DNA of 64,000 nucleotides from NCBI GenBank assembly GCA_964187785.1, contig OZ076421.1:33294001-33358000 (forward strand), read 5' to 3'. Made by a program: the position numbers and the translations under genes. This document shows positions 7,560 through 38,802 of the stretch, piece after piece. Every line of letters begins with the position of its first letter. The stretch's first letter is position 1. The notes under the pieces were generated by a model. The model had not been told where the DNA came from and ran no database searches. It was given only the letters and a program-made list of their open reading frames with translations. The stretch comes from Amphiscolops sp. MND2022. Its lineage: Eukaryota.

Positions 7560-7576
7560 TGGTGCGACCAGTGAGG
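7560..7576 (+). promoter_or_regulatory. Candidate primer-binding site of the env-bearing Gypsy element
   Basis: GTGTGACA-AAC-TGGTGCGACCAGTGAGG about 1 kb upstream of gag. No matching second LTR was found. Confidence 0.3.
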
Positions 7577-14904: not shown

Positions 14905-14981
14905 AAAATTTTGCTTACTGTCATGATCAGTTTGATTAAATCAAAATTAATCAAACTGATCATGACAGTAAGCAAAATTTT
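14905..14981. repeat. Perfect 35-bp inverted repeat with a 7-nt loop
   Basis: AAAATTTTGCTTACTGTCATGATCAGTTTGATTAA-ATCAAAA-TTAATCAAACTGATCATGACAGTAAGCAAAATTTT. Confidence 0.95.
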
Positions 14982-16208: not shown

Positions 16209-16271
16209 GGGGAAATGAACCCGGTCCTAGAGATCGACAGCCTTGTATGCTACCGTTTATGCCACCGATCC
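16209..16271 (-). pseudogene. tRNA-derived (SINE-head-like) fragment
   Basis: The minus strand reads GGATCGGTGGCATAAACGGTAGCA...GACCGGGTTCATTTCCCC, with A-box-like and B-box-like motifs at tRNA spacing. The cloverleaf is not intact. Confidence 0.35.
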
Positions 16272-16566
16272 TTGTAGTCAATTGGATTTCAGTACCTTAT
16301 AATCTTGCACTGCTCAGCAAATTGCGTTAATTGAATAAATATATAGCGGGAGGAACCCTAATTGGCTGACGATATATTAAAATGAACTGTTCTGATCATG
16401 ACGGTAAGCAAAATTTTCAAACGTATTTTTATGATTTGACTTAATTGCTTCCTGAACATGACTCTATTCTCTAGAATGCTCTATTCTCTACAAGAAACAA
16501 ATAGCAAGCACACTCTCAGGGGATAAAAGATGTGTCGTGTACTAACACTAAAATTGGAAAAGGTTT

Positions 16567-16766
16567 NNNNNNNNNNNNNNNNNNNNNNNNNNNNNNNNNN
16601 NNNNNNNNNNNNNNNNNNNNNNNNNNNNNNNNNNNNNNNNNNNNNNNNNNNNNNNNNNNNNNNNNNNNNNNNNNNNNNNNNNNNNNNNNNNNNNNNNNNN
16701 NNNNNNNNNNNNNNNNNNNNNNNNNNNNNNNNNNNNNNNNNNNNNNNNNNNNNNNNNNNNNNNNNN
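16567..16766. other. Assembly gap (200 N)
   Basis: Run of N. Confidence 1.
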
Positions 16767-17062
16767 CTGGAAGTTTCAGTTTTTCTTGGGAATGAAGCTT
16801 TTCCATCTGCCTTTTGGACACTTCACTTCAAAGAGTTTCTCGTCAATTTGCTCATTGTCAAACAAACAAAACATGACTACTTGTTGTCAAAACTTCCAAT
16901 ATTTGTTATTCAAATATTTTGTTATCCAAATCTGGGGAACACTTACAAAACATGCTTCAACATCAAACCATCAAAGCATATTAAAATCAAATCTTCTCCA
17001 ATTTAACATAATTTCTCAGAAAAAATTAACCTAAATTCTCTTAAGTTCGTTTTACTGCTTTG

Positions 17063-17360
17063 TTTGAATTAATTGCTCACTGATCATGACAGTAAGCAAA
17101 ATTTTCAACAGTAACTTATGATTTGAACTAATTGCTCACTGATCATGACAGTAAGCAAAATTTTCAATGGTAACTTATGATTTGAACTAATTGCTCACTG
17201 ATCATGACAGTAAGCAAAATTTTCAACGGTAACTTATGATTTGAACTAATTGCTCACTGATCATGACAGTAAGCAAAATTTTCAACGGTAACTTATGATT
17301 TGAACTTATTTCCTACTGATCATGACAGTGAGCAAAATTTTTAATGATAAACTTTTTGAT
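17063..17360 (+). repeat. Five tandem ~59-bp units with a palindromic core
   Basis: TTTGAACTAATTGCTCACTGATCATGACAGTAAGCAAAATTTTCAACGGTAACTTATGA. The same motif occurs at ~14100, 14905-14981 and ~16390. Confidence 0.9.
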
Positions 17361-17888
17361 TTGAATTCTCGTGAATAAATTCGAATCACTTAGATCACCA
17401 ATACAAATCATCATCCAATAGTGATGTTTTTTACATTAACTCAAACATCAATCTTCGGAAGTCAAATTAATGCATTTCAATCTTCACAACAAAGTTTATA
17501 AAACCATCTTTAATATAGTTAAACCAATGACTCACAAAACGCGTAAAGTAGTCAAGTTCATTACTGTGCTACACTATTTGACTAATATACACCACGTAAT
17601 TAGTAAGACGGCGTAATTCAGTCAAAATGCGTAGTGGAAAATCGCGTAATTTAGTCAAAGTGCGTAGTACTGCATAAGTGCGTAATGCAGTCAATAAGTG
17701 TAAATTTATGGACCGGAAAATAGTGTAAACCAGTCAATTAGTGAAATTTAGTCACTCAGTGTAACTAATTATCACTTGGTGTAATAGGAAAAAAGTGTAA
17801 AACAGTCAACATCATAATAACTCACTGTGATTGGTTATTAATGCAAAACGCAAGATCTGGGAACTTGCTCGCGGGGATATGTATCGTA

Positions 17889-19640
17889 TTGCTCCTGTTT
17901 TAATGAGCCAACGGACGAACCGGCAGAAGAAAAATTGAGAATTTGCTTATCAGTCTCACTATTTCTAGCTTGCTTCAGAATGGGACCTTACAATGACCTC
18001 GGACACCACATGCGCGCTGAAAAAAGTGTTTCTAAAGGCAAAGCGCTTTTACTACTGGCCAGGGATGCCGACTGGGTTTGTGCCCTTACACAAGACTGTG
18101 TTAGCTGCCAATTTAACAAATCCAAACAACGAAGACACAACGAGGTTCCACTGGAAGACTGCAAAAACGAAACTCAAGTATTCATGACGGTTCATATCGA
18201 TCACAAGGTACCACTCAACACTCCCAGTCGTGGAAATTCACATTGCCTTCTCATCATCGATGCCTTCTCACGTTATTTGAAGGCATAACCAGTCAGGGAC
18301 ACGGGAGCACAATCAACAATCAACGCAATGGAAAAATGCATCATGCAGTATGGCATACCGCAATCTATATTACATGATAGAGGAACAGTTTTTGTAAACA
18401 CGGAAATCGCCAATCGGACTAAACAATTTTGCGTTACCCTTCGACCAGGAACGGCACACTCACCTTGGACAAATGTAGAACTCCAAAACGAACACATTGC
18501 ATGAAAATGGAAAACCTTCCTAAACAAAACAGGAATTAACTGGGACGAACTAGCAGCTAAATTTGCATTCGCCCACAACACAAGCGTCAACCACACAACT
18601 GGACAGACACACTACGAAATAGTGTTCTGTAACAAACACAAACACCTTATGAGTCTTAAGCTGGGACTTTATAGGAACAAAAACAAAAACTGCCAGTCAC
18701 TGTTCCGCAAAGATCTACCTCCCCCTTGCCATAGCGAAAACAAAGTAAAAAACGAACTACTGAACGAGTTATTACAACCAAAACTATCACAAATCATGCT
18801 AGAACGAGAAACAGCCTTCAAAAAGGTCTATTATCCACATAAGAAAAACGCAGAAAACAAACAGCTCGATCACTCGCTTACAGAAACAGGTTTAAACGCG
18901 GACATCACCTCAATAGGACAAAAAGTTTTGCTAGAAAACCAACGAAAGGATCTCTCCAAAAAGTAAAAAATTTCAACAAATGCGATTAGGATTCTTTACA
19001 GTTACCAAGAGAAATACCAACACAACTTACCAAATAAAAGACAATAAGAACCCTGAGTACCTCCGAACTGTACATAGGAATCATCTAATAGAGTACTTTC
19101 ACAAAGAGGAAACACTGCCCACTATTATCGCAGAATACACAACCCCCACGGTGGAGACACGGATTACTATAATAACTTGGTCAAAACTAGAATTGAACAA
19201 CTTAATGTTTCAGAACAACAAACTCCTGGGGATCTCTGCGTTTTACCAGTTCAAAACCAACAAAACTAGACACTCGTCCGCGAAAGGGCGAGAATCTCAC
19301 AGAGCACAGACTCTGGCATCATTTCTCCTGAGAGTCAATTGTTGATTACACTAATGACTCCTGCCCAGCCTCCCACATCCTGCGCCCGTGGTTCAACAAC
19401 CCCTATCTTAACACTAACGCAACAACAACCAACACCTGAACCACCAGCCAACAGCCCAACATCTTCATCTAAATCAACGACTCCCTTGCAAGAACTACGA
19501 AGAGCTGTAGCATTGAAAAGAACCCCCGCTACCAACGTGCACAACCAAATCAAGAAGCCCCACAGTCCATACTTTGCGATAGAACTCGAGTTGGTTTTAG
19601 GTCGTAACTCTCGTCATGCCATACCATAAAGTTTATCTAA
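17889..19640 (+). pseudogene. pol: Gypsy integrase with GPY/F-like region and low-complexity tail
   Basis: HHCC region (LGHH...DCVSC), IIDAFSRY, LHDRGTVF, and LGFFTVTKRNTNTTYQI..VHRNHL. Confidence 0.9.
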
Positions 19641-20405
19641 ATTTACCTTGGCAAGTTCCCCGAGAACTGCAATCCTTGGGAATCCTACAAGTTACCATTT
19701 CAAAAATCTACTCGACATACACAAACAAACAAGTCAGAATTTGTTTTTACTCCTCGACCCAAACTCTCACCTACAAGATCGACCCAAGCATCGCAAATCA
19801 AACCTTCCATTACAGTGCAAAGGCAAGCTATTTTGCTGCTTGTCATGGAATTCCGGGACACGAAAAATGAGACAGTGCGTACAGCTAAGCATTTGTTACT
19901 GGAATCCGTAGAATCCGGGACTGGGACAAATTTGCCAATTTTGCACGTTTAAAGGTATGGTCGGGCAATCCGAGGTATTGAAAGCACAAAATTGTTCTTT
20001 GAGCAAATTCATCTCGCCTATGCACTCTAATGTCATCTACGTCAGGAACCAAGATCCTTTGCCAATCTATACCAACACCTAGCATACGATGCAGTCATAC
20101 ACCACGACCTTTTCCTAGAAGAACTTCTATTCTACATGCCTACCCTAATACCTGACCTACAACCTTCCCTACCTAATACTCAAAAGGATCATTCTGCTGC
20201 TCTACTTTCTCCCCACCTAGCTCCTAGCTGACTTCATTTTCCCGATAAAACACTATTTTAAATTTTATCATTATGTTTTGATACACTTTGTGCAACCCCG
20301 TAGTGTAAATCACCCATAGGCGGACGAAGACCTAAGCAACTAGAAAAATGAATAAGGGTTAGAGTGGAGTAGCCTAACCGGCCTACTTCACTTCTAATAA
20401 ATCTT

Positions 20406-21011
20406 TTAGTAACTGTTGGACCGCTCAGCGTTGATCAAGTCAAGCCACAACCGACGAAAAGGCCCCCGTTGGTAAGTAGTCAGCTGGGAATAGCCACGAA
20501 TGAAACTTCTGAGCCGAAAAAGCAAGACTTCTCCCTGCTGGGCTAAGAGTCTTGGCTCCCACTGGCGCCCAAATAATTGCATCAAACAAGATGCGAATTC
20601 CACTGATATAGGTATCGCACCCACAACTATAAAACTGCGGAAGCCTCTAATCCACCGAGTTCTCTCGACCCACTCCTCCAGCCGGCAAACCTCCCCCCAA
20701 TCATATAAGTCCACGAAGGACTCATTTTCCAGGTTACCTGTTTCTCCGGTTTTCGCAAACCGTGCGGAGGACTCACGGGGGAATCGTAACTACGGGAGCC
20801 CCAACTAGACGAGATGTATCGGGGCGACTAGGTGCGGCCACAGACACAACTGACGGAGCCACCGAAACGGCAACAGAAGTGGCAGACACTGAAGGGGCGG
20901 GGGGACCTCAACAGCTACCAACTGCGAAGAGACCACAACGGTTGGAGAAGTCGGGGCGGTAACGCCCGATGCCCCACTACTGGCAGGATTATTCACATTG
21001 TTGCTGCTCAT
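20406..21011 (-). pseudogene. Antisense accessory ORF (~200 aa after correcting two frameshifts), function unknown
   Basis: MSSNNVNNPASSGASGVTAP (S/V/A/P-rich) joins to ESFVDLYDWGEVCRLEEWVERTRW...LWLDLINAERSNSY*. It is a GC-richer island between integrase and env. Confidence 0.45.
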
Positions 21012-21627
21012 TACTGAACACAAAATAACTATAGATAAAGTTACGTCATGTAAACCTGAATAAACACCCACTGATTTGAAATTTATTATATACATGCATA
21101 ACAACTTATCTTATAATCCAACTATATAATTTAGTATGTCTAGACTGATGACTTTATTGTCAGATTTGCTTTCTTTGACGAATATAAACTAAGTTACAAA
21201 AGATTTCAACGATGATCATAATTTTCAACGCGACAGTCGCCTTTCACAAATCACCGATAACCAGAAGGAACCCTCTACGCATAACAAACATCATCATCCA
21301 AGCCTACGCAATTGCAGAAGAAGAAAGTGAAACTTACAAGTGTGTGCGGGACCTACCCCCTACTGGAAAGTTTCCTCTACAATAACACACCGCCTCGAGA
21401 ACTCGAGAAGTCTTCGCGAAAGCCAAGTAAGTCATTTGATGTCACCTCCCGAGGTTTCCATCTCCCGTGACGACCAGGACTATTTCCAATCACATTTTCA
21501 ACCTCCCGCTATAGTTCTTTTCCCCATCCATTTCGGATCCAAAATACGCTAATCTCTTCCTAACTTTCAAGCAGTACAAACTTCAACACCCTGACGTCCT
21601 CAAAGACAAAGCTTCCAACGACTTCAA

Positions 21628-22147
21628 GTAGTCCATTAGTGCGTGTGCGAGACCTGCAACTTATTTTGAGTCAGTATCAACTGAGATAATCCAATGTCCA
21701 GGTTGGTGAGGTCGGAGGCTGTGGATTTCGATTTGAATTGTAGAAGCTGTCTCTTTCCAGGCAATAAAAAGGATTTCAAGAAGCGTTTCGAGGTGACGCC
21801 AGAGGCATTTTAACTGGATTTTAAACATCGTTTATGTCGAAAAGAGAGTGTAGGGTTAGCTACGAGTGTTATATCCAATAAATAAAGTAAGTTACTTCAT
21901 TTTTTGGATATAACACTCGTAGCTAACTCTCTTGTCGACATAAACGATGTTTAAACTCCAGTTAAAATGCCTCTGGCGTCACCTAGAAACGCTTCTTGAA
22001 ATCCTTTTTATTGCCTGGAAAGAGACAGCTCCTACAAGGCAAATAGAAATCCACAGCCTCCGACCTCACCAACCTGGACATTGCTTTATCTCAGTTGATA
22101 CTGACTCACATGAAGTTGAAGGTCTCGCACACGCACTAAAGGACTAC
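21628..22147. repeat. Long inverted repeat, ~250-bp arms with a 25-nt spacer
   Basis: 21628-21878 is the reverse complement of 21904-22147, apart from scattered mismatches and small indels. Confidence 0.95.
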
Positions 22148-22282
22148 AGACAAATTGCATACCTCGATCACATTCACCCTCTAGCACCTTTCCTTCTCAC
22201 CAAACTCAGCGAGTTTCTAGACACGAGGAAACGAAACAAACCCTCTCCCAGTTTCCAATCAATCCGCGACAATAACTACTGA
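21947..22282 (+). CDS. Small sense ORF (111 aa) upstream of env, function unknown
   Basis: ATG-initiated ORF. It runs past the right arm of the inverted repeat, so this arm is likely the original copy. Confidence 0.35.
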   Translation: MFKLQLKCLWRHLETLLEILFIAWKETAPTRQIEIHSLRPHQPGHCFISVDTDSHEVEGLAHALKDYRQIAYLDHIHPLAPFLLTKLSEFLDTRKRNKPSPSFQSIRDNNY

Positions 22283-22620
22283 ACCTTAACAAATGGTTGA
22301 CGTTAACCTTTTTCACATTTCTATTTCGGCACTTTTTAACAGTAGTGAGGTTAATACTATAAAACTTTAACTTTCGCTGCCGGTTTGATACTACAGCTTG
22401 CCTTTTTACGGCCTTACTACGGATCCTCAGCTATACAAAAAACAAAAACAAAAGGAAATTAAAATACTTACCTTACACTTAGGCACGTTTGAACAGTACT
22501 GAGGATACTACTATAAAATTTTAACATCCGCTTAGTGCAGTGCCCACTAAGCTCCCGGTTTGATATTAAGCTTGCATTTTTACGGTCTCTACTAAAAACA
22601 AACTCACTTCTTTTTCAAAC

Positions 22621-23290
22621 ATGAAACGTCACAACGTCCAATGCCGAACCTCGCTCTAGCGTTGCAAAAAAACTGCAAGTTACTCATTTCGACTGCGGCG
22701 AGCGAAATGACCCAAAAAAACTCTACGCGTTGAATCAAGTAGAGCAATGCAATGTGGCACCTGAAGATTTAGAAGTAAATCGTGCGAGCGTAACGTTATA
22801 CACTAAACATTTCTGCCGCACTATCAACGCCACTATGTGCCATGTGATACATCACAGTGAAAAATGGCATTGTGGTCATTATGACCACTCCAGTATGTCA
22901 ATCCTACACAACGGAATCACTAGCTGTCTTTCCGGGTCACCCGAAACTTGTAAAGCTATGGGTGAAGGCCGAGAAGTCATAATCCATGGCCAATCCCTCA
23001 AATTTACGAAAGGCAGGAAACAAGTACAGACAAGGCACGCAAAATATGGAAATGGTTGGGACGGAAAACTTGATCTTGATACCAGTAACGAGTGCAAGAG
23101 TGGTAGATGGATCAAACGCGAAATGTTCGAATCTCATATGCAAGACGCCGATTTGTCAGTTTAAAAACCCGCGACGGGGATGTCCTCACAGCTTTTCAGA
23201 TGATTCTCCCTTGCCCTCTTGAGCAACTTGGCTGCAAAACAACGTCATTGGACCCGTACGCCTATACATGGGCAGAACCCGATAACTGCG
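22621..23290 (+). pseudogene. env: env-like glycoprotein, 5' part (class III viral fusogen-like)
   Basis: THFDC, INATMC..KWHCGHYDH, PETCK, NECKSGRW and LPCPLEQLGCKTTSLDPYAYTWAEPDNC give a Cys/Trp pattern resembling chuvirus G / herpes gB-type proteins. Confidence 0.7.
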
Positions 23291-26200
23291 TGTAACGGCT
23301 GCTTGATCCCTTCAGTTGACCAAACTTTACACCGCCCTGAATTCGGTGCTCGGCACTGCGGATCGTTACCGAACACTGCTTGCTTCTTAGATTAAAAGGA
23401 CTGTATCTTGACTCAGTAGGATCCAATGATCCCGAATTGCACTTCTTCCTTGTCTCTTAACACGTCCAACTCTCCACAAGTTGAGAGTAACTAACTTAAT
23501 CGCCCTAAGCCTTTGGCGAAAAGTCGAAAAGAGGTGAAGAAATGAATTGAGAATTGAAATGATCCTAAGACCCAACTTGAATACATCTTTCCAATCAATT
23601 TGTGCTTAACTAGTTATGGTATACATATTGTTTACAATTCTTCGATAAATATAAGTCAAAATATGAAGTGTAAATAAATGACATTTAGGTGAATTATTGA
23701 AGTTATTGGCTATGTAAACAAACCATAGTGTGGGTATAGCATGTTGGTTAGGTGGGCTCTAAAGCATGTCTACACAATGTAAATATCATCAATTGCAACA
23801 GAGTTACATTCTAATGTGGTCATAATGGTAAATAGCAAAGTTTACATTATTGGCACCATGACCTTGAATTTCACACATATGAGGGGTAAAGGGGGTTATA
23901 ATGGGTGGATGACCTTGAAACTGGGCCGGTGGGTCCGTGTTAGGTACTTGCACATGTGTGCCAAGTTTCATGGCTCTATGATTAATAGTCTTGGAGAAAA
24001 CCCATTTGGGGGGGGTTTGACGAAAATTGACGATCGAATATTTTTCAAGTTTTCATCTAAGTTTCTAATAGTTTAAGTCTTGTTTCTCAATCAGCACGTT
24101 ACGTTCTGAATTGAATTTCTTTGCCGATTGATGACCGGCGCCAACATTGCCGGCCCTGTTTTTTTCCCGAAAATCACTTTCATAGAACATGGGTGCCAGT
24201 CTCACTACTGGTGGTCTGAGATTGTCATCAGTCATCGTTGTTTTTCTGAGAAATTCTGTACCGTAGTCATGTTTGCCAGTTGTTTGCTGTGTTCTTTCTC
24301 TACTGCAATGCTTCGCCAGCTCATTATCTAATCCCGTTCACTGACCATAAGGTAGTTTTCGACAAGTTCACATAATACAACCAAGTGTTTCCAAAAACTG
24401 TTCTCTCATTTGAAGTGAATTAGAAGATTATCCCATACTTGATCGTCAACGTCCGACATTCATTGAGTTCAACGAATTCCTTTTCTCTTGAACCTTTAAC
24501 AGGTATGTTACAAAATTGCTTCAGTACATTTAACTCGACATCCATAATTACTTCAACATCCAAAGAATAGATTTCCAGATAAGTCGAAAATGTCTCCAGA
24601 CAGTTTCCCAAGATTTGCTCTGCTACATCTTTCCTCATCAAAGTTGACTGACCGCGGGGGAGATATGTCAAAGAGGGTTCGTTCTCTAATCGTTCCATAC
24701 TCAAGCTTTCAATTTGGCGTTCGGAAGAGATTATTGAATCATCCATCATCATCACCAATAAATAAAGAGAATTTCCAACATTACAACGACTGGAGTTTTT
24801 TCTTTTGTGTTCAAGGCTCTCTTTGCATCCAATAGGGGAGGATTTGTGTTGTGAACTCAGTCGCAGCGCTGCATTTTGCTCTTTGCTTACAGACACGTCG
24901 TTTTTCGTAGCTACATCCGAGTTTTCTCCAAACAACTGCAATGCCGTGGAGTTTTGCTTCCGCTTCGGTTTGTAGAGATTCACTGTGCTTCTCTCACCAC
25001 AAAACATTCTTTTCATTTAGGTTTTTATCCGCTTCGATAGATCAGCAGAAACTTCCAATTTACCAAAAGACCCATGCCGAGTCCACATTGTCTTGAAAAG
25101 TGCAGCCGGCCCATTGCAAGACCCGTTGCTCCAACTTGTTGTTGGTACTTTCAAAGAACACATTTGCGTTCTTGTCACTGATACGTTGTCTGTCAAATCA
25201 TGTAAACAAAATGTGTCATCTCGTGTTCCATTCTCATTCAACTGAGATCTTTCCTCCGTTCCATGAATCAGGTTCCAGTTATGTTCAATCTTCCAAATTC
25301 TTCTCTTCGATTGCTTGCGGTGGCCGTTGCTCAATTGAGTTTCATCAATGTCGTTAGCTTGTGCCACTGCGTCCATTCCAGAGTTTCCATTACCAGTCCA
25401 AGGGTTCCATATATTACTATGACTCGGGATAGTTTCTTCTAAAAGACTTTCATTGAAGTCGAAATCCGATTTCTTTCCAAAGGTTGCATTCACGATTTGT
25501 GTTTCAGTTTTAGCATTGCCTTTCGCGGGTTTATCATGTTTCATTGCAACGTGGCATAACTTTTGATACATGACCATTTCATTCAAGTCTTCTGGCAGTG
25601 TATATCGTTGCTCATTCACAAAGTCATAACTTTTGACAAACTCATAACATCTGTTTCTTTCTTCAAGAAGTAGAGTAATGTCAAAGAACACTGTCACTTG
25701 GAATAGTTTCCCCTCTCGCACGTCCTGTAGTACGGTGGAAACTTCTGCTGACCTTCCTTGCAGCAGTTCAAATTGCACGCGCGGTTCTTCCAAAGTTTCA
25801 TTTTTCGATGATGCGTAGGCTAAGCTTCGATGCTCTGGCATTGTTTCAGTCATTTTGTAATCCAAAGTCTCCTCTGTTTGCACTACCAAGTGCTCACTCA
25901 TGACCAAGTGAATCTCTTCTTCAAAAACTTGTTCTGTATCCACGAGGAGGGTTACTGATTGGAAGTCTTGCCAGCCATTGTCTACAACGAACGTTTCTGG
26001 CCAGTTCCACATCCATTCTGCGATTAGATTTTTCGAGGTTCCTTTGTTTGCATTGCTTTCAACATTTGTCATATTTGAGTCTTCCTGTGCATCACGTTTG
26101 ATAGTTTTGTCTTGCAACTTTCTATGGTTTGGACACTTGTCTGAACACTTCATCTGCTCAGGTTTCCATTTTTTCACTGTACACTTTCCTTTTGTTGTCC

Positions 26201-27553
26201 AGTCAAGAGTTTTTAGCGAAACCATTTCTTCTTGCTTGCCCAAACGTTCGTCTCTTCTTTTCGGCGATTCATTGTGATCACTTGAACTTTGTTTGCTCGA
26301 AGTCTGCTCTGTTTGAATTTGCTTCACAGTTCTCATCATTGAACAATTTTCAACGCTTTTTTGGTTCGAGCGCCAATGTGATCCAACAATGAATCGCCGA
26401 AAAGAAGAGACGAACGTTTCTGGCCAGTTCCACATCCATTCTGCGATTAGATTTTTCGAGGTTCCTTTGTTTGCATTGCTTTCAACATTTGTCATATTTG
26501 AGTCTTCCTGTGCATCACGTTTGATAGTTTTGTCTATCAGTGTTCGGTAACGATCCGCAGTGCCGAGCACCGAATTCAGGGCGGCGTAAAGTTTGGTCAA
26601 CTGAAGGGATCAAGCAGCCGTTACATTTGGTTCGCCGACCCGGACATCATCGATTGGGCGGACATCATCAGTTTGGCGCGGACATCTCGTCGGTGGACCA
26701 AATGTAACGGCTGCTTGATCCCTTCAGTTGACCAAACTTCACGCCGCCCTGAATTCGGTGCTCGGCACTGCGGATCGTTACCGAACACTGCTTGCTTCTT
26801 AGATTAAAAGGACTGTATCTTGACTTAGTAGGATCCAATAATCTCGAATTGCACTTCTTCCTTGTCTCTTAACACGTCCAATCTCCACAAGTTGAGAGTA
26901 ACTAACTTAATCGCCCTAAGTCTTTGGCGAAAAGTCGAAAAGAGGTGAAGAAATGAATTGAGAATTGAAATGGTCCTAAGACCCAACTTGAATACAGCTT
27001 TCCAATCAGTTTGTGCTTAACTAGTTATGGTATACATATCGTTTACAATTCTTCGATAAATATAAGTCAAAATATGAAGTATAAATAAATGACAATTAGG
27101 TGAATTATTAAAGTTATTGGCTATGTAAACAAACCATAGTGTGGGTCTAGCATGTTGGTTAGGTGGGCTCTGAAGAATGTTTACACAATGTAAATATCAT
27201 CAATTGCAACAGAGTTACATTCTAATGTGGTCATAATGGTAAATAGCAATGTTTACATTATTGGCACCATGACCTTGAATATCACACATATGAGGGGTAA
27301 AGGTGGTTATATAGGGTGGATGACCTTGAAACTGGGCCGGTGTGTCCGTGTTAGGTACTTGCACATGTGTGCCAAGTTTCATGGCTCTATGAATAATAGT
27401 CTTAGAGAAAACCCATTTGGGGGGGGGTTTGACGAAAATTGACGATCGACTTTTCTTCAAGTTTTCATCTAAGTTTCTAAGAGTTTAAGTCTTGTTTCTC
27501 AATCAGCACGTTCTGAATTGAATTTCTTTGCCGGCTGATGACTGGCGCCAACA
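23291..27553 (-). mobile_element. Non-autonomous BEL/Pao-like LTR element (4263 bp) inserted in env
   Basis: Direct repeats at 23291-24146 and 26703-27553 with TG..CA ends, and a 5-bp TSD CTGCG (23286-90 and 27554-58). On the minus strand the LTR starts TGTTGGCGC like the BEL LTR at 48097, is preceded by GGGCCGGCAA and is followed by TTTGGT. No RT or integrase motifs. Confidence 0.8.
24420..26600 (-). CDS. Internal ORFs of the non-autonomous element (527 aa, then a stop, then 198 aa in the same frame); unknown product
   Basis: ORF track entries 25017-26600 and 24420-25016 abut. The block DKTIKRDAQEDSNMTNVESNANKGTSKNLIAEWMWNWPETFV occurs twice. Confidence 0.45.
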
Positions 27554-27558
27554 CTGCG

Positions 27559-28900
27559 TGCTTGCAGTACACAGGTAAGAAATGATGAATATGACCAAAC
27601 ACGGACATAACTACTATATTGTTAACGGCAACAACTCCACTACAATGTTCATATTCGACGATTACAGCGGGCCTTAGAAATATTGCAACAAGCCCGACGA
27701 CGTATACCAAACCAACTACACATCCCTGTACGTTTTGATCCAATTTGGTGACTTCGACATGAGATCCGGCAGACGGTTAGGCATCTCCATGGGAGAAACA
27801 ACCGAACTCCACTATTACTCACCTGAAGATGGTTCTGGTAATGGCTGACTCCACCTCTTCAAAGGCCCTTGCGACTCCAACCCCAACACACCTCATTATC
27901 TGAACATGGATTACGAGTTGCACCAACAAACAAAGTTAGTTTATCTTTTCTTTGAGAGCACCAAACTGCTCGAAGCCTCAGAGATCCAGCTAATTGAAAC
28001 ACAATGTGAGCAAGACCAGACCCAAATCCTCACTATACTATCTTGATGTTATCAATGGAAAATCCTCGCCTCGCCTGATACATGATCACGGGAAATCGCT
28101 CTATGCTCCTGAACACATATGGTAGCCTCGCTTGGCCATATCACTGTCCAGAATCCAACTCACCACTTCACACGATGAACCAATGCTACGACCGCATACC
28201 CATCTTCTACAAAAGGGTGGTCGCCTTCGTGGACCCCATAACCCTACAGACCTATCCCAACGCGAACTTGCAAAATTACAGCGATCGCATTAAGAACCTC
28301 TTTCAATTGGACATGGACGACAAAGACTCCTGGTTTACCATTATTCCCTCACCCGCTTTCTATGGACCCAAAGACATCAAACCAATGATTACCAGATTTT
28401 TCCTGGATCAAAAGATGCGGAAATGTTCACCTCTAAACACATCTCAGAATTTTGGGAAAACATCCTCATCAGCGCAGCGTCTTGTAATGCCCTCCTGAAG
28501 ATTTCACGTCAGCTCATCATACTATCAATGGCCCATAGCGGACCCGAATCTGTTCCGTATCCAAACCTTGTACAGATTTTCACGTTGACGGCGTGATATC
28601 ACCCGGTTACTTTAAAAATCAGTTCCCCGAAACATTGGGAAGTGTATCTTACGTACTAGAACTCTTCGACGCGTATTTTGGCGCATTCTTTTCATCAAGG
28701 TTATTATCGATATCGCCATATTAGTCTTCCGCTATTTCGAACTTCGTGGCCTTTCAGGTAATGCCCTGAGCTTCACTAAAACCTTGCTCAGTGCTTCGTA
28801 CAATCTTTTCTTTACCTCCGTTTTAACTTCTGTCTTCACCCCGCGAGCCCCTTCCGAAGATAGCATTGAAGATAAAAACAGTAAAGACAGCAGACGAAAT
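27559..28900 (+). pseudogene. env: env-like glycoprotein, 3' part (right end approximate)
   Basis: Resumes in frame (DNC|VLAV) after the CTGCG TSD. Contains QCEQDQTQIL..MENPRLA, YHCP..NQCYDRIPIFY..FVDPIT, and a hydrophobic segment near 28650-28760. Confidence 0.7.
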
Positions 28901-29588
28901 AAAAAAAGTAGAACTTGAAAACTTGTGACAAAACAGGGAATCTTTAAACCCCTCAGTACAGATCTTCGTCGCTCCAATTTGAATGACAATCTCATTTCGT
29001 ACTTTACTTTTAGCATTTAGAACCATTATTCGACCTATCAAACCTGGAAGACGACTCCCCCATTCCCACCTTAGAAGACGACTTAGAAATAGAACTGTTA
29101 TCCCCGTCGGACCTGCAGTCACCAGTGTTGCCCTCATCTATCACCTTCCTGCTAGACCCCCCATGCTCAACAGTCCACTCTCCATCTCCAAGAGCCCTTA
29201 CAACAACACCCTCATCTTCGACGACTGAGCAACCGCCCTTTCCACTGACATTCACCGAAGAAGTAGCACCTATCACCTCAACCCAACACCCACCCAGACT
29301 TGACGGGAAAATCATTAGAATGGTAATCCCAAGAAAACGACACCATCAATGGAATAACAAAATAGCAGAGGAGGCACCATTGATAAAGCAACAAAAAAGA
29401 TAGTACTTCACCAAAAGGGCCAGATATGCTAAGAAACCTCGCTTTTTTGCGAATTTGTATACCCTTCTCCCACAATTCTCAACGTGGAAAATAGTTTTCT
29501 GGGACTGCAAGAGACAGGAATAAACCATTGAAAACCCAGCACTAAAAAGACAAAGACTAACTGTCACTCTACGATCAATATTCGCACA

Positions 29589-29807
29589 ATGAGTCAAAGG
29601 CTAAATCCAAACGCTAGTCCTTTCATCCCACAATTTAGCCTTCCTTCCCCTGAAACTACTAATAACTGGCCACCCATATCAAGAACAGACGATCCAGATG
29701 AACGCGAGATCCTCGAGGGAAGAAAAAGGTTAAACAAATGGATATCGGAATTAGTAACTTCAACTAACCCACGCTGTCAAGTGCCTTTTAAAAGTCCCAA
29801 GTGCTAA
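29589..29807 (+). CDS. 72-aa ORF with an N-terminal PAM2-like (PABP-binding) motif
   Basis: MSQRLNPNASPFIPQ. It lies just upstream of a G-tract (CCGGGGGG at ~29871) that may be the PPT. Confidence 0.55.
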   Translation: MSQRLNPNASPFIPQFSLPSPETTNNWPPISRTDDPDEREILEGRKRLNKWISELVTSTNPRCQVPFKSPKC

Positions 29808-29885
29808 AGAGACCTCCCTTCATTTCTGACCAATCCCACAATCCCAAAACCCAGTTCTATTTTTACCTTACCGGGGGGTTGAGCT

Positions 29886-30300
29886 GTCGCGTTATGACTA
29901 ACGTTTAACAATCAGTAATTAAAAAGCAACTGCAATAATAAAGAGCTCAACAAAAATCACCTGAAATAATAAAAAGCTCCACAATCATCCCTGGGCTACA
30001 GTGCCGTTTGTATGCAAAAACCACTTGCCGAAATACGAAGAATAACAATCATCTTTATGCTACAGCGCAGTTTATAATTAAGAAACACCTGCAATAATAA
30101 AAAGCTCAACAATCATCCCAGGGCTACAGTGCCGTTTGTATTCAAAAAACACCTGCAAAAACAAGGCAGGAAATTGAACTAACCTGGAATTGGAGGGATT
30201 TGAATACTAATGTTTGATTGAGTAGGGCGGCTGGCAGCGCTGGAAACAGAAGCCGCAAAATAAAAAAGTAATTGAGGGATACAAATACCGCGGGATTGCG
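29886..30300 (+). repeat. Candidate 3' LTR remnant of the env-bearing element, with internal ~125-bp direct repeats (right end approximate)
   Basis: TGTCGC follows a G-run, and CAATCATCCC.GGGCTACAGTGCCGTTTGTAT occurs twice. No 5' partner LTR was found. Confidence 0.3.
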
Positions 30301-30804
30301 CAAATGAAAATTTCAATCACTTACTGTGGTAATTTAAAATCTAAAGCTAAACATTGATTAATTGAATGCAAAAGAGGCTACCCAGGCACTCCAGCAGAAA
30401 TGCTGAACTGGCTTTATACGGCGTGCACAGGCTGGAGCTTCATTCTTTCCGCAAAACCGGCAGAGTTTAGACTCAAAATAAGCTCTCGTCTTCCTTCACT
30501 TCTCTTGCTCTTCTCTTTTTTTGCTCCAACTCTCCCTCGTCTCTTATCTTCCCTCTTTTGTGTTGTTTCTTCCTTGGATTTGAAAAGGTTTTTCTTATTC
30601 TACCCCTTCTCTTGCTTTGGCTCTCATCACAGAAACTTTCTCTTGTCCCCAAAACATCCTGAGTTATACTTCTCGCAACTGAATTTTCTTTCTTGGAAAT
30701 TTTTCTTCACTTCTATTTGGTCCTCGATTTGTTGAGTCGAAATTTATTTATACATTTTTTGTGGAGATTTCTACTTCTCATTTTTTCTAACTAGAATTCT
30801 AAAT

Positions 30805-31690
30805 TAAAATAATTCCACTGATTTCACTCAGCGGTTGTTTAAATTCTAACTGAGAATAATTCCGCTGATTTCACTCGGCGATTGTTTGAATTCTAACTTA
30901 GAATAGTTCTGCTGATTTTACTCAGTGCTCGTTTAAATTTAAACGTAGAATAATTCCGCTGAGTGGCTCAAACTCAGCATTTGTTTAAGTTCCATCTTGG
31001 AATAATTCCGTTGATTTTACTCAGTAGTTGTTTATATTATAACTTAAAACAATTCCGCTGATTTTACTCACTGGTTGTTAAAATACTATCTTAGAATAGT
31101 TCCAACGATTTCACTCAGTGGTTGTTAAAGTTTTAACTTAGATAAATTCCCACTAATGCCGAAGCAAAAAACTGATAAACGTTACATAAGCTCACCTAAA
31201 GTAATTTCGACTAACTTATCTTGTAATTTTGTGTTTTGTTTGAAAAGTCTTAAGGTTATTTTGATATCAACTGAATAGAGACAATAAAGAAACAAAACTT
31301 GTCAGTTTGAATTAGTAATGTTTTTAATATTTTTTTATTCAAAGCTATACCAAAACGTTTTCAAAATGAAAATGTAAAGCTTCCAATTCTATCTGTATGT
31401 TTTATACATTTATTCTGATGAGACTGATAAAGCCACTTTGCTGAAGAAACAAAAAAGTTTGAAAAATCGCACCTGAAGTATGGAAAGAATGGAATAGGTA
31501 CAGCTATGCCAAGAAACATTTTCAGACTTAACATCAGTCTCCCTCTAATATGTCAACATATATGCTACCTCTAACTTTTTCCGTAAACAGACAGCTCATT
31601 TACGTACACTGCCGTGCACTTACTCAGGCCATATCCTTTGTTCGCAAGTACACGCAAGGCAATTCATTTTCCGTATAAACTTCTGAGACT
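30805..31690 (+). repeat. Dispersed repeat copy B (47-bp tandem units plus a unique tail)
   Basis: Colinear with 6475-7410. Confidence 0.8.
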
Positions 31691-32050
31691 TTATAATCCT
31701 GTTCTGGAATGTTTTACCAACAAAAATTTTCCCAAGCACTGTCAAACAATTTCTTTAAGTCTTGATTTCTTATGACGAATTTGTTTTGATTTTTCTGGCT
31801 CAAACACGATCATCGATTTGAAATTTAATTATTGTACTCTTATCCTGCAGAAAGTTTTCTACTTTGCAATCAATCGATAAATATTTCAACATGAATGTCT
31901 TCGGACGACTTTTGATAGACCTTTTTTCCCAGGCGCAACTCCATGTTCGGAACAGATGACTTCTTGCACTTTTTGCGAAGGTCCCATTGGATGATGTCGT
32001 TGCTCTGTTCATTTTTGAATATGGCCCCAGTCACAGGTTGTGGATATTCT

Positions 32051-34175
32051 TGTTACGACTATTTACCCTGGTAGTTTCATGAGTAGTCGCAGTGGTTTTA
32101 GTTTTAAATGGAGTTGAGGTTGCATTTTCCGGAACGTTTTCGGACTCAGAGTCAGTTTCATCGGAAGCTGTTATCACGGTTTGTGTTCTAGTTGTAGGGG
32201 CTATTAGTCTTAACACCTCCTTTTGGTTTTCAGCTAAGATTTTAGTAAGGTCAGACATTATTTCTTTCCTCAGCGAGGATTTGATTTCTTCTAGATTTTC
32301 AGTAAGTACTCTAGGAGATTTGCTCGTTCCCGCTACGGGATTTAGGTTCTGGCTATTCTCAGGTAATGGGGTTTCAATTTCAGTGGAAACTAGTTCTTCG
32401 ACAGATTTTCTTTTCTGGCTTTCAGTAGTCATTTTCAGCAAGAGAGAGAGAGGAGTAGTTTCTTTGAAAAATTCTAATTCTCCAAAGAAAATTGATTTTC
32501 TGAAAACGAGGTTTTAACATAGCAGAAAAAGCACTGATTCAATTATTTTACAAATTCCTGGGTATATATACTTTCACAGCATCATTGGTTCCTCACCTAA
32601 AAATTCCTAGGAATCCCTAAAATCGGTTTTGTTCATTAAAAATGCTTAATCACCCTTATTATTTCAACACTTCAATTAATTGTTCATACTTTAATATTCC
32701 TGGTCACGGCTCCTTTACGGAGTGCCTTGTTGAAATCATTTTTGTTCAACAACATCATTTCCGGTTTGATCGCGGAAAAGGCGGCAAAACAAAAGTTTAG
32801 TTGAATTTCTATCAAGAGAAGCACGCTGGCGTGAACAATGATTCATCCCAAAACTAGTGAAAATCATCTGTTCGCGGCAAAAGATTGACAAGCAGAATTG
32901 ACTACGGAAATATCTCGGACTGATTTTGGATTAATGTAGTGCATTATTTGAAAAGGGACAAATGATGCTGGAAAATGGTCAATACAGGTCAAGGACTGAA
33001 CTAGCAGATAACATGGCACAATATAGTTCTAAACTAATTTTAAATGTGTTGAAACATAATGGCCAGATCATTTAGTTCAATGAACATAACGTAATAAACA
33101 TACAAAACACTTTTTCCAAAATGAAGGAAAGCACCTTTTATTTGAACAATTACCTTGCCTTAACCTGCAGCACGATCATTTCGATTAGTTATAAAAAACG
33201 GAGAAAATTCGGAGGAGTATTATATAAACATTATGATATTTTGAATATTCCGACACGATTCCGTATGGCATGGGGAGTATTTCGGTATATTAAAATAATT
33301 TTGATCTTGCAACTTTTTCCTTAGTCGTTCTACACGTATTAACATTAGGTATAACCTCATTTATTTACAATTTGCTCCGTAAGCGCTCCGTGCGTATTAA
33401 GATTAGGTATAGCTTCATTGCTCTACAATTTGCTCCGTAAGCGCTCCGTGCATATTAAGATTAGGTATAGCAGGCTTGCTGTCAACGGAGCAAGAACGGA
33501 TTGATAAGCCATTCTTAAATCATTTTTAGTGACGTCACTAGAATAATTCTCACTAGCTTGAGCGCAAATATGCTGGTTTTAGATGTAACGCTATTGGTCC
33601 AAAAAATTAGAAAGACCAGTGCTTTACTTGTTTGAGCGACGCTGTCATAACGTTTTAAGAGCTTACTCAAATTACTTGACTGCGATTTGAGTGGGTTTTA
33701 ACAGCTACTTCAACTACTGGAAACAATTCCATTATGCTATTTTGTGTTCTTTTCATTTTACATTGTATGTATTCCGTTGGGATCGCGGAATTAAATAACG
33801 TTTTTAATGTTTTCATTCTAATGTGGAAGAGGAAACGAATGATCCCAGAGTTAAGAATGTTTTGGTTTTGTAGTTTAGATTGGTATAGAATTTTCAGCAG
33901 ACGAAAATGGAAGTAAGAAAAAAAACCGCGTATGAAAACATTAAACCGGAAGTTTCGTTTTGTCCAAAAATCACTTTTGGATATTTTACGTTGCGCTTCC
34001 GTTTGATTAAAATCCCTTTTGCTTCGATATTAGTTCGTGCTACAGTTTAAGTAAAAGTTAGTAGTTAGTTAAAGTTTTACTTAGTTACGTCCAGCTCACT
34101 CATGGCCTCGTCCTTTGGCGAATTTCGGGATTCCTCCACAGCAAGAAAAATCCCGACCGGGAGCGGGTCGTGACA
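32051..34175 (-). repeat. 3' LTR (2125 bp)
   Basis: Colinear with 45132-47091 and contains ~170 bp missing from the 5' LTR. It encodes the gag N-terminus (ATG 32432) and the ORF-X tail (stop 34096). Confidence 0.95.
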
Positions 34176-34770
34176 GGGCGCCTCTATAGTTTGTTGGCCA
34201 GGGTCTGGGGCAGAGTGGGATTTCCCACGTAATAAGCACGGGCTGCTTTCGTGCTCTTCTGATTCTCGTCGAGGTTAATGAATTTCCTCTCCCGGCGGTA
34301 CAGTAGTAGTCTTCTGTCATTGATAGCCCATGAGCCTCCTCTATTTCTTGGATGGAAGGTTCGTCTAAATCATTCAACTTCTCTGACTTTGAAGGAGGAG
34401 CATATTCCTTTTCGTTCGTGGTGTCTGTAAGTACGGGGGAACGTGTCAGTTAGGGCATTTCCCGGGACGAATCCGGGTCTTCGTAACAATCAGAGTTTTT
34501 TTTCTGATGTGATTCGACGACAAAAGCTTCTTCCGGGTCAGACTCGAATGTCGACGATAATTCTTGAGTGGAATCAAGGTCCGCCTCACTTCCCCGCCAT
34601 ACTTCTACAGAGGAATCACTTAGATTAAGTCTCCCCACCCTGTTTACGGGCGGAGTTTTGAACGGGGTATTGTATCTGTGGTTCTCTTCATCCGAGGAGA
34701 TGTCGATGACAATGGCATAGTTGTCCGTTTTGCTTTTGGCGGATTTTTATCTGAGTTTTGAAAATTCAAT
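34096..34770 (-). pseudogene. ORF-X homologue (frameshifted) with a SIM-like motif; ends inside the LTR
   Basis: (L/M)NFQ...AIVIDISSDEE compares with MNFQ...AIICTSSDEEE at 3932. The region is acidic, and its last ~26 codons lie inside the LTR. Confidence 0.55.
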
Positions 34771-35265
34771 TTTAGTTGAACTTCTCTTTACGTTTATTGT
34801 ACGGCAAATAAAGAGGTCAATTCTCTTCCGTTCATGTTTTTCCTGCATTCCTATTGGCTGTTACTTTCTTTTATTTCGGTTCGTTTTACCTTCGGAAAGC
34901 GTTTCATTTCCATCTGCGCTGTGATTGGCTGAACCGTTGAGATGAAGTTACTAAATTTGAACTTCGTTATGGCGTTATCAATTTTTTTCCGGTGATGATC
35001 CGTGTGACGTCATAAATTGGAAAATGATATGCTTTCTTTTAGAGCATCTAGATAGTCAGATTTATCCCTTGATTTTTCTTTGCTTTGGAAGCGATATACT
35101 TCCGTCTACGCCCTATTGGGCTTAGGTGCAAAATGACGTGATATATTTCTTTTTCTTGAGTTATGTTGTCTTTTTGACTTTTGGTTTTCGTAGCTTCTTC
35201 GTTGTCTTTTCTTTATCTTTCTTGATTGTTCTTTTTGTTTTATATTTCTTGAGTTGTTGTTTTGG

Positions 35266-38200
35266 ATGGATGGTGATTCTGTTCCGCCTGCTGGTACCGG
35301 CGCAGGGTTCTTCAGCGGCAATGAGACGACATTGAATTTCACCGAAGATGACGTCGTCGCTTTGGATGTGGATATTTCTCGTTCTGCTTCAGGTTGGTAA
35401 AATCTTTCTGACATACGTGGGTATTTGGACTATCTTCTTTGGTGATCAGCCTTTTTAGTCTTACCCGTAACTGCGACGCGTCAAACCAGATCTTGATTTT
35501 CAGTAACTCAGCCCATTGCTCTTCCTGGAAATAGCACCTTTACGAATGCTGGACGTTCCTTGACTCCCACGGGGCTTCCTCCCATTACCCAGGCATTTCC
35601 AACTGGCTCTGTCAATGCTGTTTTGACAACTGTGCTCTCTGGGTCTGGGCTTGCTACCTCTTTGCTGCCTAGTTCCTCTGTTTTGCCGGTGGCTCCAGAT
35701 GTCGATCCTAGTGGTTCACGAGGTGTCGAAGCAGTCAGTTCTCAGCTTCGGGATGCTACCGTTGACAATGAGCCTCGAGGAGGCGAGGCTGTTCCGCCCT
35801 CTCCGGAAAAAGGTGGAGAAGATGTGGGTAATGCCGGAGCTGAGACGTTGCAGAATAAAAAACCGGGGTGTTCCCGTGAGCTGTCGGTCAAATTTGCTAC
35901 TCCGCTACAGCAACGACAAGGTGGTCGTTCACCCACTTTGCATGAACTTATGGACGGGTGATGGAGCAGTTAGTTTCTTTTTTTTTCTCTCTCTCTTTTT
36001 TCCCTCGTTTGTTTGGTGGTATACTGCTTATATGCGATTATCTGATTAGGCTTCTGCTTGAGTTTCCTTTCTCTCACTCAGGTTTTCGTTCTCTTTTCTC
36101 TTTAAGTTTATTTCTTGGTATACTATTTTAGTATCTTTTGTAGGCAATGAGGTGGAGGACGTAGCTTTCCCCGGCAGTACTCCGTTAAGTCCTGTCGATT
36201 TGGCGCAGTTTGGTCGTCACCTGATTGCTGAGGTGGAGAATGGGGCCGTGCAAAGTATCGAAACAGGTACGTTGGTGTTCCATAGTGAACGAGGGTTGTC
36301 CGTTAGTGTTTGTTGGGGCTTGTGGTTTGTACGAATCTTTGCCGTTTTCAACAGGTAGTTTGTTGTTGTTGGCAGGTTTTAAAAAGTTGTCCAAGAAGAT
36401 CGGAGATCGTTGTCAGCGCCGAGTGCGGACTTATGGAAGTCGCAAGCTTTTGAAAAGACGGATGTTGTCGTTGCATCCTGCGTATCCCGATTTTGTCAGT
36501 GGTGCCAAATGCGGAGAGCCTACGTATTTCTTTTGTCGCGTCTGTCAACGTGATGTGCGAATGAAGACTCATGGATCTGGTGAGTTTAAACGTCACTTTT
36601 CATCTGATGGACACTGGTTTCGTGATGTGTGCTTCAGAGTGCACGCAGGGCTGCCCATATATAATAGGTTGCTAGAACCTATGGAACTAACAGCTAACCA
36701 AATTGCGGAGTATAAGGCCCAACTTTTTGTTGACCTGGCAGGAGGGTTCCCTTTCTCTGAAGATTTGTTACCCAAGCATGAGCAAGCGGGTTCAAAGGTC
36801 CCGTTTATGACAATGATCTCGTCTGTCTGTGAATGGCTCCGGAGTGGCAGCGACTTCACATTGTTGCGACGTTTCGTTTGTGGGCGTGTTTCCGTGCCTC
36901 TCTAGGAGAAAGTGGGCCTGAGTATCAGTTGAATTGGAGCCGAACTGAGACCGTGGTAAGGAGGGATATTATGTACTTTGGGTGGGCGTCGGGTTTTTCC
37001 TGTTCTGGGGGGGGGGGAATGAGGTATCTGTTGCGATTGAGATTTTTGTAATCCTGTAGTTCTACATTGTTTCAGGCTTTGCTGTGTCGTGGGCTCGCTC
37101 CTCGAGTGTTACGCTTAGTTCTCAGTGCAGTCGGGACACAAAATGAGTACACACTGTTTTATGAGAAGGATACGGACGTCGAGCGGTGTTTCGTTGTGTG
37201 CTGGCTGGACAACACTCTAAGGAAAATTTGTATTAGGCAGGAAGCTTTAGACCTGCTTCGTAAAGTTATCCGTCTGGGTTTCGTTGCCTTCCCGGACCTT
37301 CGTGAAGTTCTGACGGATTTGGTCGACTTGTGGCCGTCAATTCGTTTGTTCATTCGGTGTACTGGATTGCCTCACGTGAAGGATCAGGCTGATAGTGTTA
37401 GTGTTGTATTTTTTTGTCAACTTTTTCCCCATTTTGGGTGTTTCTTCTTCTTTTGGGATTGTTTTCGTCATTCATCAACTGTTGTTTAGTTGAGAGGAAT
37501 GGATTCGACTGTGATTTCATACGGACTGGTGGCGTATTGCTTTGGGTTGTTGCAATTGATGCTGGATACTTTTCATATTCATTTACCGAAATTGATACAG
37601 GGACGTAGCGATTATGCATTTCATGGCTATGGCGAATTGTGCAACCTCGTGTATTGCCTGCTGATGAAAACTCGCGAGTTGTCAAGTCTTCCTGGTATCC
37701 ACGATTGGGATTCGTACATGGACGTGGAGAAGGTGACGAGTTTCCCTGTTTCTCCTGTGGACGAGTTTTTGTCTCATTGTGAGTATGGGAAGTCGCTTTT
37801 AGCTGCAAAGACGAGTGAGATGCCGAAATTTCGTGGACGCTGTAAAGAGTTTATTGATCGTCTTGCTTTCCTGTTGGTAGAGAGCGCCAGCACACGGTCC
37901 CTTGTCTCGAAAAGTCTATGCAGTTTTTGCCCTGAGCTGATGTTGGAGGGTGACGATAAGTCTGCGTTCGATCTGTTCTCTGAGTTATGTGGTCTTCTGG
38001 TGGGGTGCGACGCTTTGTCTCGGGAGGAATCCAATGCAGCTGTGGATGAGTATAATGCGTATGTCATTGAGAAGCGAAGACAACATAACTGTTTGGAGCG
38101 GTCTGCCAGTACGATCCCGGATGTACGCCGTTATCTGTTTTGGGTTTGGATGTACTGCGGGTTTCCAAGTTGTGTTGCTTGCTCGTTGGTGAACCAAATC

Positions 38201-38765: not shown

Positions 38766-38802
38766 CTTTCCTGTTTTGGGGCATCTTTTGTAAAACTGTT
38801 TG

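Follow-up and report, generated by a model that had tools for sequence, protein, structure and literature searches.

A decayed, very probably env-bearing Ty3/Gypsy retroelement with a predicted class III fusogen in Amphiscolops sp.

Does the cysteine-rich, env-like region downstream of a Gypsy-type pol in the genome of Amphiscolops sp. belong to that pol, and what kind of fusogen did it encode? To address this question, we analyzed a 64-kb window (64,000 nucleotides, the whole stretch of DNA under study, in whose coordinates all positions are given). What remains at the locus is very probably a Ty3/Gypsy LTR retroelement that carried an env (operationally, an errantivirus); the copy is old and dead, and at least two insertions have since entered it. 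Its order would be LTR-PBS-gag-pol-(spacer)-env-(small ORFs)-PPT-LTR. We regard the copy as dead because its env carries at least five in-frame stops and seven frame changes and lacks the signal-peptide stretch, as judged by mapping 15-residue tiles of P0001, an intact natural relative, onto the window. Intact env and pol ORFs, which the catalogue of Chary & Hayashi (eLife 14:RP108449, PMC13524379) takes as its criterion, are lacking in the window copy and present in database relatives. Searches for relatives of the locus gave 41 pattern matches among metagenome contigs and nine among viral contigs, none of them confirmed.

Two plus-strand pieces, at 22621-23290 and 27554-28979, belong to a single decayed env into which a younger LTR element has inserted. 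The upstream piece corresponds to residues ~20-236 of P0001, and the downstream piece to residues 237-715, which comprise the central helix, domain IV, the transmembrane segment and the tail; Pfam, tblastn and tile mapping identified both. Of 47 tiles, 45 map colinearly onto 22632-23289 and 27570-28946, with the remaining two falling in the signal peptide and in a short stretch near residue 500. By tblastn, clean pieces share 76-87% identity with P0001 and two frameshift-spanning pieces 43-56%. Two separate window ORFs match the PF24664 profile colinearly, at positions 22-133 (E 5e-7) and 348-461 (E 3e-5). The translations also contain the motifs by which an earlier note on this DNA had recognized the env, namely H/YDC, WxCG, CxxxxxGC...YTW...C, NPxLA and CYxRIP. 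The insert that the note had removed to join the pieces is real: a minus-strand element occupies 23291-27553, with LTRs at 23291-24150 and 26703-27553 (861 bp, 95.4% identical) and a 5-bp target-site duplication. Its internal 530-aa ORF matches no Pfam family above cut-off, and the element is apparently non-autonomous. P0001 and P0003 match only the env at 22.6-28.98 kb, and the window yielded no other env. The window also holds a minus-strand Gypsy element, with no env family in its 3' region.

The fold was examined through P0001, a 715-aa protein from a 128-member cluster in which nine of the 15 listed members measure 714-715 aa; the env family as a whole counts 1,247 representatives at E<=0.001. 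PF24664 was found in all 11 env relatives scanned, with no other family, and in P0001 at E 6e-34. By Foldseek, the check that the earlier note had proposed, all 40 listed PDB matches of the P0001 model are herpesvirus glycoproteins (best E 3.8e-12), and the top BFVD matches are glycoproteins of chu-, xinmo- and qin-related viruses (best E 3e-30); the model is a monomer with a pTM of 0.46 and reaches global TM-scores of only ~0.2 to PDB gB structures. A wide VIA search returned gB at Z 8.0 and gB domain IV at Z 7.9 (rmsd 3.7, 155 residues), values of Z <=8 being weak alone, followed by the rabies, Chandipura and thogotovirus glycoproteins. Searched against the PDB by sequence, the env profile had no match. 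Fourteen cysteines of the ectodomain are conserved across 81-100% of the aligned rows, and hydrophobic segments lie at the N-terminus and at residues 606-637 of P0001, which combines a class III fold with a signal peptide and a transmembrane segment. These models support the assignment of the env family, by predicted fold, to the class III (gB/chuvirus-like) fusogens, in agreement with the note's preference for this class over the F type. An F-type (class I) env was rejected, given PF24664 as the sole family in those relatives and the lack of an R-x-K/R-R (furin) site in P0001.

Upstream of env, a decayed gag at 8580-10035 (plus strand) was recognized in translation, with a CX2CX4HX4C knuckle at 9370-9411. 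No Pfam family matched the gag region; Atlas feature leads of 0.84-0.90 point to gag/zinc-knuckle clusters and serve as a lead only. The 5' part of pol (10037-13572, plus strand) comprises protease, a macrodomain remnant, reverse transcriptase (RT) with YIDD, RNase H and a bridge. It is colinear with P0178/P0179 (57-77% identity over the main pieces, with one unassigned region following the protease) and matches RVT_1, RT_RNaseH and RT_RNaseH_2. Colinearity with P0178 breaks at residue ~1180, where 4.3 kb of AT-rich insertion or insertions, assigned to neither strand, occupy 13573-17895 and include an assembly gap (N run ~16567-16766). The 3' part (17896-19604, plus strand) contains the integrase and a Gypsy-type C-terminal domain, with 61% identity to P0178 residues 1177-1724 and matches to rve and Integrase_p58_C. 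P0178 itself matches PF17917, PF17919, PF17921 and rve above cut-off and PF22938 and SH3_Tf2-1 below it, and the best PDB match of a pol relative is Ty3-G Gag-Pol (E 2e-56). The order PR-RT-RH-IN, the Gypsy-type RT/RNase H and the integrase C-terminus mark the pol as Ty3/Gypsy-type, as had been read from the sequence earlier. The BEL domains DUF1759, Peptidase_A17 and DUF5641 are absent from nine pol relatives and from the frames scanned at 8500-13600 and 17820-22650, on either side of the AT-rich insertion. All three were detected in a separate BEL element of the window, which holds BEL elements at 48097-54164 and a DUF1759 ORF at 61068.

The earlier statement that paired LTRs were not found proved too pessimistic, as a candidate pair brackets gag-pol-env. 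The candidate 5' LTR (6470-7556, plus strand), found by repeat matching, ends in ACA and is missing its upstream part; the candidate 3' LTR (29885-31692, plus strand), found by repeat matching and sequence, starts with TGT. Positions 6510-7410 and 30794-31692 are 79.4% identical over 911 columns, and the 3' copy shows no counterpart to the final ~145 bp of the 5' LTR. A 47-bp tandem array lies inside the candidate 5' LTR. Both copies are incomplete and have lost their outer ends, so a target duplication cannot be read. Three nucleotides past the 5' LTR end is a PBS-like site that starts with TGG (7560-7576, plus strand); its motif has no match in the published PBS table of Chary & Hayashi, and no tRNA gene was found within the window. 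A weak PPT-like site (29866-29884, plus strand) has a G6 run (29873-29878) located 6 nt ahead of the TG start.

Most likely, pol and env belong to one element. The earlier note had rested their linkage on order and orientation alone; both stand, and the candidate LTRs, the PBS- and PPT-like sites, matching contig sizes and a fusion protein add support. A C>G, A>T strand bias is common to gag, pol, env and the post-env stretch, and pol and env are similarly decayed against their respective relatives. Contig size, a proxy that carries neither position nor orientation, is shared with one of 30 pol-cluster members by four of the 15 listed env-cluster members, against none of the 15 for 105 other pol rows; by this proxy env P0012 and pol P0247 both lie on a 12,398-bp contig. 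In the database ORF P0058, a pol relative and an env relative are fused. Equal-sized pol contigs were found for none of ten members of a second env group and for one of 28 distant env proteins, the 15 contig sizes of the P0248 cluster match none of 35 distant env contig sizes, and none of the 107 pol-set proteins includes an env. The 3-kb pol-env spacer (19605-22600, plus strand) contains ORF remnants and a 222-bp inverted duplication (21628-22147), and its stretch 22376-22420 matches the N-terminus of env relatives. A spacer ORF at 21944-22279 has no longer homologue (none of 60 candidates passed, which is weak evidence).

Could the two halves nevertheless have separate origins? It is possible, though unlikely, that the locus is a chimera, in which recombination or mis-assembly brought together two different copies or subfamilies of one env-bearing Gypsy family, the first contributing 5' LTR-gag-pol and the second env-3' LTR. 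An LTR identity of only 79%, LTR ends that do not match, the 3-kb unexplained spacer and the N gap in pol would fit such a history; however, the order is canonical, pol and env have diverged from their relatives to about the same degree, and old age alone accounts for the LTR identity. The family-level conclusion would stay the same under a chimera. We give very little credence to a non-retroviral endogenous viral element, that is, a chuvirus-like glycoprotein cDNA inserted once into a Gypsy element and never its env. The nearest structural matches are indeed glycoproteins of negative-strand RNA viruses, but the top rows share no more than 13-17% identity with these viral proteins, the surroundings gave no match to any further RNA-virus gene, and the family is multi-copy, with many full-length ORFs and the size given above. 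That the env came from a BEL/Pao (Anakin-like) or other element and adjoins the Gypsy pol by chance is very improbable. Mosquito Pao elements commonly carry chuvirus-like glycoproteins (Dezordi et al. 2020, PMC7642597), and BEL elements stand in the same window; against this, BEL domains are missing from the scanned frames, and both the P0058 fusion and the contig proxy matches link the env family with a Gypsy pol.

As an env-bearing Gypsy element, the locus is not the first of its kind. Ty3/gypsy errantiviruses with HSV/gB-type ENV are known from many animals, with 221 occurrences of the label ENV_HSV in a table of 1,512 elements (PMC13524379). That a class III env in a Gypsy lineage would be a new, separate capture, as the earlier note had envisaged, is not supported. 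Among the gB-type errantiviruses the locus counts as a new member, though a dead one, and the pairing itself was already known. Its family shares with these elements the order gag-pol-env, a Gypsy pol, multiple copies, and a class III env that has conserved cysteines, a signal peptide, an ectodomain and a transmembrane segment and in which a furin site is not obligatory; the locus differs in its long candidate LTRs (~1.9 kb), the 3-kb pol-env spacer, the Pol macrodomain and its dead state. Flatworm elements are reported to be ordered gag-env-pol (PMC13524379), in contrast to gag-pol-env here. The env family appears to lie outside the ENVs aligned by Chary & Hayashi: in a crude test against their domain I-II table, five of six family-typical 4-mers had no match and the sixth matched a planarian C1a element (PMC13524379). 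Anakin elements likewise are LTR retroelements with a chuvirus-like class III glycoprotein, and have a BEL/Pao backbone and occur in mosquitoes (PMC7642597), whereas the backbone here is Gypsy without BEL domains. Chuvirus/xinmovirus/qinvirus-related G (PF24664), herpesvirus gB and rhabdovirus G share the class III fold and domain order with the modelled env, although identity is at best 13-17% (gB ~10%) and this family's env is encoded by a retroelement. The locus adds one more lineage to the published pattern, possibly from a host group outside the survey.

By analogy with gB and rhabdovirus G, the intact family Env would be a signal-peptide-bearing, single-pass, disulfide-locked, trimerizing glycoprotein. 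Its domain-I fusion loops would enter the target membrane, and refolding would then fuse particle and cell. Such fusion would let the element pass from one cell to another, such as out of the soma into the germ line, a route taken by Drosophila gypsy, before ordinary reverse transcription and integration. The window copy is incapable of such movement; the many full-length env ORFs in the family suggest that env continues to be of use to the element.

A more unusual lead than the env pairing is the macrodomain embedded in Gypsy Pol. The window retains a TARG1-like remnant at ~10930-11230, with the C-terminal half missing, and the Pol-embedded domain matches human OARD1 in P0178 (E 1.2e-8) and P0234 (E 5.5e-20). 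Unlike TARG1/OARD1 (C6orf130), it lies within a Gypsy Pol, between protease and RT; fish epsilon-like ERVs have macrodomain ORFs (PMC4977317) rather than an embedded domain. The word 'macro' does not occur in the main text of PMC13524379, and a limited search of papers, mostly from outside subscription journals and not extending to Repbase annotation, gave no description of a macrodomain in Gypsy Pol. Of 54 other relatives that carry the domain, 39 have the GCG(L/V)D loop and 24 have HC(I/V)S, with neither in any of 23 relatives from the element's own pol clusters; the xxTK motif is kept in 21 of these 23. We take these motifs to correspond to the ADP-ribose-binding loops and catalytic Lys/Asp of TARG1/OARD1. 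Judged from sequence, the macrodomain is degenerate in the element's own family and also partly deleted in the window copy. Should the domain prove active in sister families, this would suggest that hosts use ADP-ribosylation to defend themselves against LTR retrotransposons; RNA-virus macrodomains offer a parallel.

We speculate, as a doubtful reading, that the family represents a 'complex' errantivirus lineage absent from the published catalogue, which would combine a class III env with accessory host-interference genes (the Pol TARG1-like macrodomain, a PAM2 micro-ORF and further pol-env ORFs). In such a lineage the macrodomain would act as a counter-defence against ADP-ribosylation, still intact in the sister families but turned to another purpose in this one, and the micro-ORF could recruit poly(A)-binding protein through its PAM2 motif. 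ORF remnants 3' of env span 29014-29807 (plus strand), and the last of them, at 29589-29807, contains a PAM2-like motif that matches PF07145 with E 6e-4 and 19.7 bits, against a cut-off of 20.

On both sides of 23291-27553, the plus-strand sequence of the window (22621-23290 and 27554-28979) is, judged by homology, that of a single glycoprotein. Two unedited window ORFs match the Pfam family PF24664 (Monjiviricetes_fusion) in colinear order, and the best longer homologue (3 matches among 151 candidates) is P0001, an intact 715-residue natural env relative with 79% identity. On the window, 45 of 47 P0001 tiles were placed in order, with the insert falling between residues 236 and 237. The interruption proposed in the earlier note is borne out by LTRs 95.4% identical over 861 bp and a 5-bp target duplication, and the env motifs it cited were found in window translations. 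The window copy is dead: it carries at least five in-frame stops and seven frame changes and lacks the signal-peptide stretch. By eye, 13 of the 14 cysteines conserved in the ectodomain are retained. The nested LTR element at 23291-27553 lies on the minus strand and has no pol, its 530-aa ORF matching no Pfam family above cut-off; it also contains an exact internal duplication of 126 bp, and its LTR end recurs in inverted orientation at 26538-26639.

PF24664 is the sole Pfam match in P0001 and in all ten other env relatives scanned. Hydrophobic segments lie at the N-terminus of P0001 and at about residues 606-637; the protein has no R-x-K/R-R site, and the 14 cysteines are conserved in 81-100% of aligned rows. 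Its AlphaFold2 model, for which the alignment of natural relatives held 49 of the 177 env-set proteins, has a mean pLDDT of 75.5 and a pTM of 0.46 as a monomer. With this model, Foldseek returned 110 PDB matches at E ≤ 0.001 (best E 3.8e-12), the best 40 of which are all herpesvirus glycoproteins, 39 being gB by title. Among 191 matches in BFVD, the top ones are glycoproteins of chu-, xinmo- and qin-related viruses (best E 3e-30), with an identity of 13-17% in the top rows. A Foldseek-independent wide structure search gave Z 8.0 for gB, in first place, Z 7.9 for its domain IV (rmsd 3.7, 155 residues) and Z 6.8 for another HCMV gB fragment, followed by the rabies, Chandipura, Bourbon and Thogoto glycoproteins; each single Z is modest. 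Measured against gB structures in the PDB, global TM-scores lie at about 0.2, low because the domain arrangement of the monomer model is uncertain. An ESM Atlas feature search was consistent with the class III reading (0.97), at low recognition value, and the env sequence profile found no match in the PDB. The class III, gB/chuvirus-like assignment made in the earlier note is thus supported by the modelled fold through agreement among several class III families, not through any one score.

The pol upstream is of Gypsy type, as had been suggested. Its 5' part (10037-13572, plus strand) and 3' part (17896-19604, plus strand) are colinear with the intact relatives P0178 and P0179. They are separated by 4.3 kb of AT-rich insertion or insertions (13573-17895), in which a 59-bp tandem array and an assembly gap occur. 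The top PDB match of P0178 is Ty3-G Gag-Pol (E 2e-56), and its Pfam domain set is Gypsy-like.

Several observations join this pol to the env. Where the earlier note had found no paired LTRs, we see a candidate pair: a 0.9-kb repeat (6510-7410 versus 30794-31692, 79.4% identity) brackets the element, in register as the common part of putative LTRs of about 1.9 kb. The left copy extends as far as an ACA end at 7556, and a PBS-like TGG site lies behind it at 7560. On the right, the sequence opens with TGT at 29885, after a weak PPT-like G run; both copies are incomplete. A plus-strand bias of C over G and A over T runs through gag, pol and env into the stretch after env, whereas the pol insertion lacks it and, in the env insert, the AT skew is reversed. 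In the 90% cluster of P0001 (128 members; 714-715 aa in nine of the 15 listed), four of the 15 lie on contigs equal in length to that of one of the 30 members listed for the two nearest pol clusters. With 105 other pol rows of mixed origin as the control, the count was 0 of 15 (rough binomial p 0.02), equal length being a proxy for co-location. The distant env P0012 and the pol relative P0247 are both on a 12,398-bp contig; no equal-length pol contig was seen for a second env group (0/10) or for 27 of 28 distant env proteins, and the cluster of the pol relative P0248 gave no such match with env. Finally, one of the 177 env-set proteins, the natural ORF P0058, fuses a segment related to pol (51% to P0178 897-980) with one related to env (47% to P0001 353-557); it probably arose by internal deletion from a related element.

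Taken together, we consider it highly probable that the locus is a decayed Gypsy element carrying a class III env. A chimera of same-family elements is a minor possibility that would leave this conclusion unaffected. That the env is an endogenized RNA-virus gene is very improbable. Least likely is ownership by a BEL element, as BEL markers were absent from the scanned frames of the env-linked element but present in the positive control, a separate, decayed BEL/Pao element of the window (48097-54164, plus strand; own 544-bp LTRs 92% identical; DUF1759, Peptidase_A17, DUF5641).

Nematode BEL elements carry a gB-like env. A chuvirus-like glycoprotein is described in mosquito BEL/Pao elements in the accessible part of Dezordi et al. 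(PMC7642597). The earlier note held that a Gypsy-borne class III env would be a separate capture, but the kind is already published: Chary & Hayashi (PMC13524379) report that intact Ty3/gypsy elements bearing an env of F-type or HSV/gB-type occur across the animals, with cnidarians, ctenophores and tunicates among the hosts. There, a mosquito BEL chuvirus-like glycoprotein used as bait yielded 114 gypsy elements, and the label ENV_HSV occurs 221 times in a table of 1,512 elements; the genome list covers some animal phyla, not all. In a crude test against its ENV sequence table, five of six family-typical 4-mers had no match and one matched a planarian C1a element, so the window env family seems absent from the aligned ENVs, though the figures and the full sequences deposited outside the paper may include a closer relative. 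The window element is a further member of the published Gypsy and gB-type env kind.

In Pol of this Gypsy clade, a TARG1/OARD1-like macrodomain sits between protease and RT (window about 10930-11230; P0178 residues 277-353; residues 72-201 of P0234, another pol relative), matching human OARD1 at E 1.2e-8 for P0178 and 5.5e-20 for P0234. It was matched in 77 of 149 pol proteins examined, and none was detected in P0248 or its long cluster members. The GCG(L/V)D loop occurs in 39 of 54 other relatives with the domain versus 0 of 23 from the window element's own clusters; the loops thus look canonical in other families and degenerate in this one, and the window copy lacks the C-terminal half. The region between protease and macrodomain (about 10450-10800; P0178 about 60-165), which we take by eye to resemble a degenerate dUTPase fold, had no Pfam match. 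No description of a macrodomain in Gypsy Pol was found in the literature searched, and the accessible part of bioRxiv 10.1101/2021.11.30.470311 held nothing relevant to one; macrodomain ORFs of fish epsilon-like ERVs are mentioned in the part of a review available to us (PMC4977317). Just before the PPT, a small plus-strand ORF (29589-29807) has a PAM2-like motif (PF07145, 19.7 bits against a cut-off of 20). Macrodomain and PAM2-like ORF are putative accessory functions, and the boldest reading, in which they would be counter-defence genes of a complex errantivirus, seems doubtful. The pol-env spacer (19605-22600) holds ORF remnants and a 222-bp inverted duplication (21628-22147); its compositionally distinct stretch at 20260-21100 may be another insertion.

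Anatomy, homology, decay and the modelled fold are the demonstrated part of this account. By analogy with established class III fusogens, the glycoprotein of intact copies would be a membrane-anchored trimer that drives fusion by inserting its domain-I loops into the target membrane, and Gag-Pol particles could then enter neighbouring cells, plausibly germ cells. According to PMC13524379, such transfer from soma to germ line is established for the errantiviruses of Drosophila and only proposed elsewhere. The many full-length env ORFs in the P0001 cluster are compatible with either selection or recent amplification.

A second Gypsy element (32070-47043, minus strand) has 1.9-kb LTRs of 94% identity, and no env family was matched in it. 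Its pol is followed by about 5 kb that looks coding but is unexplained, with antisense ORFs at 35497-38248. Another DUF1759 gag begins at 61068.
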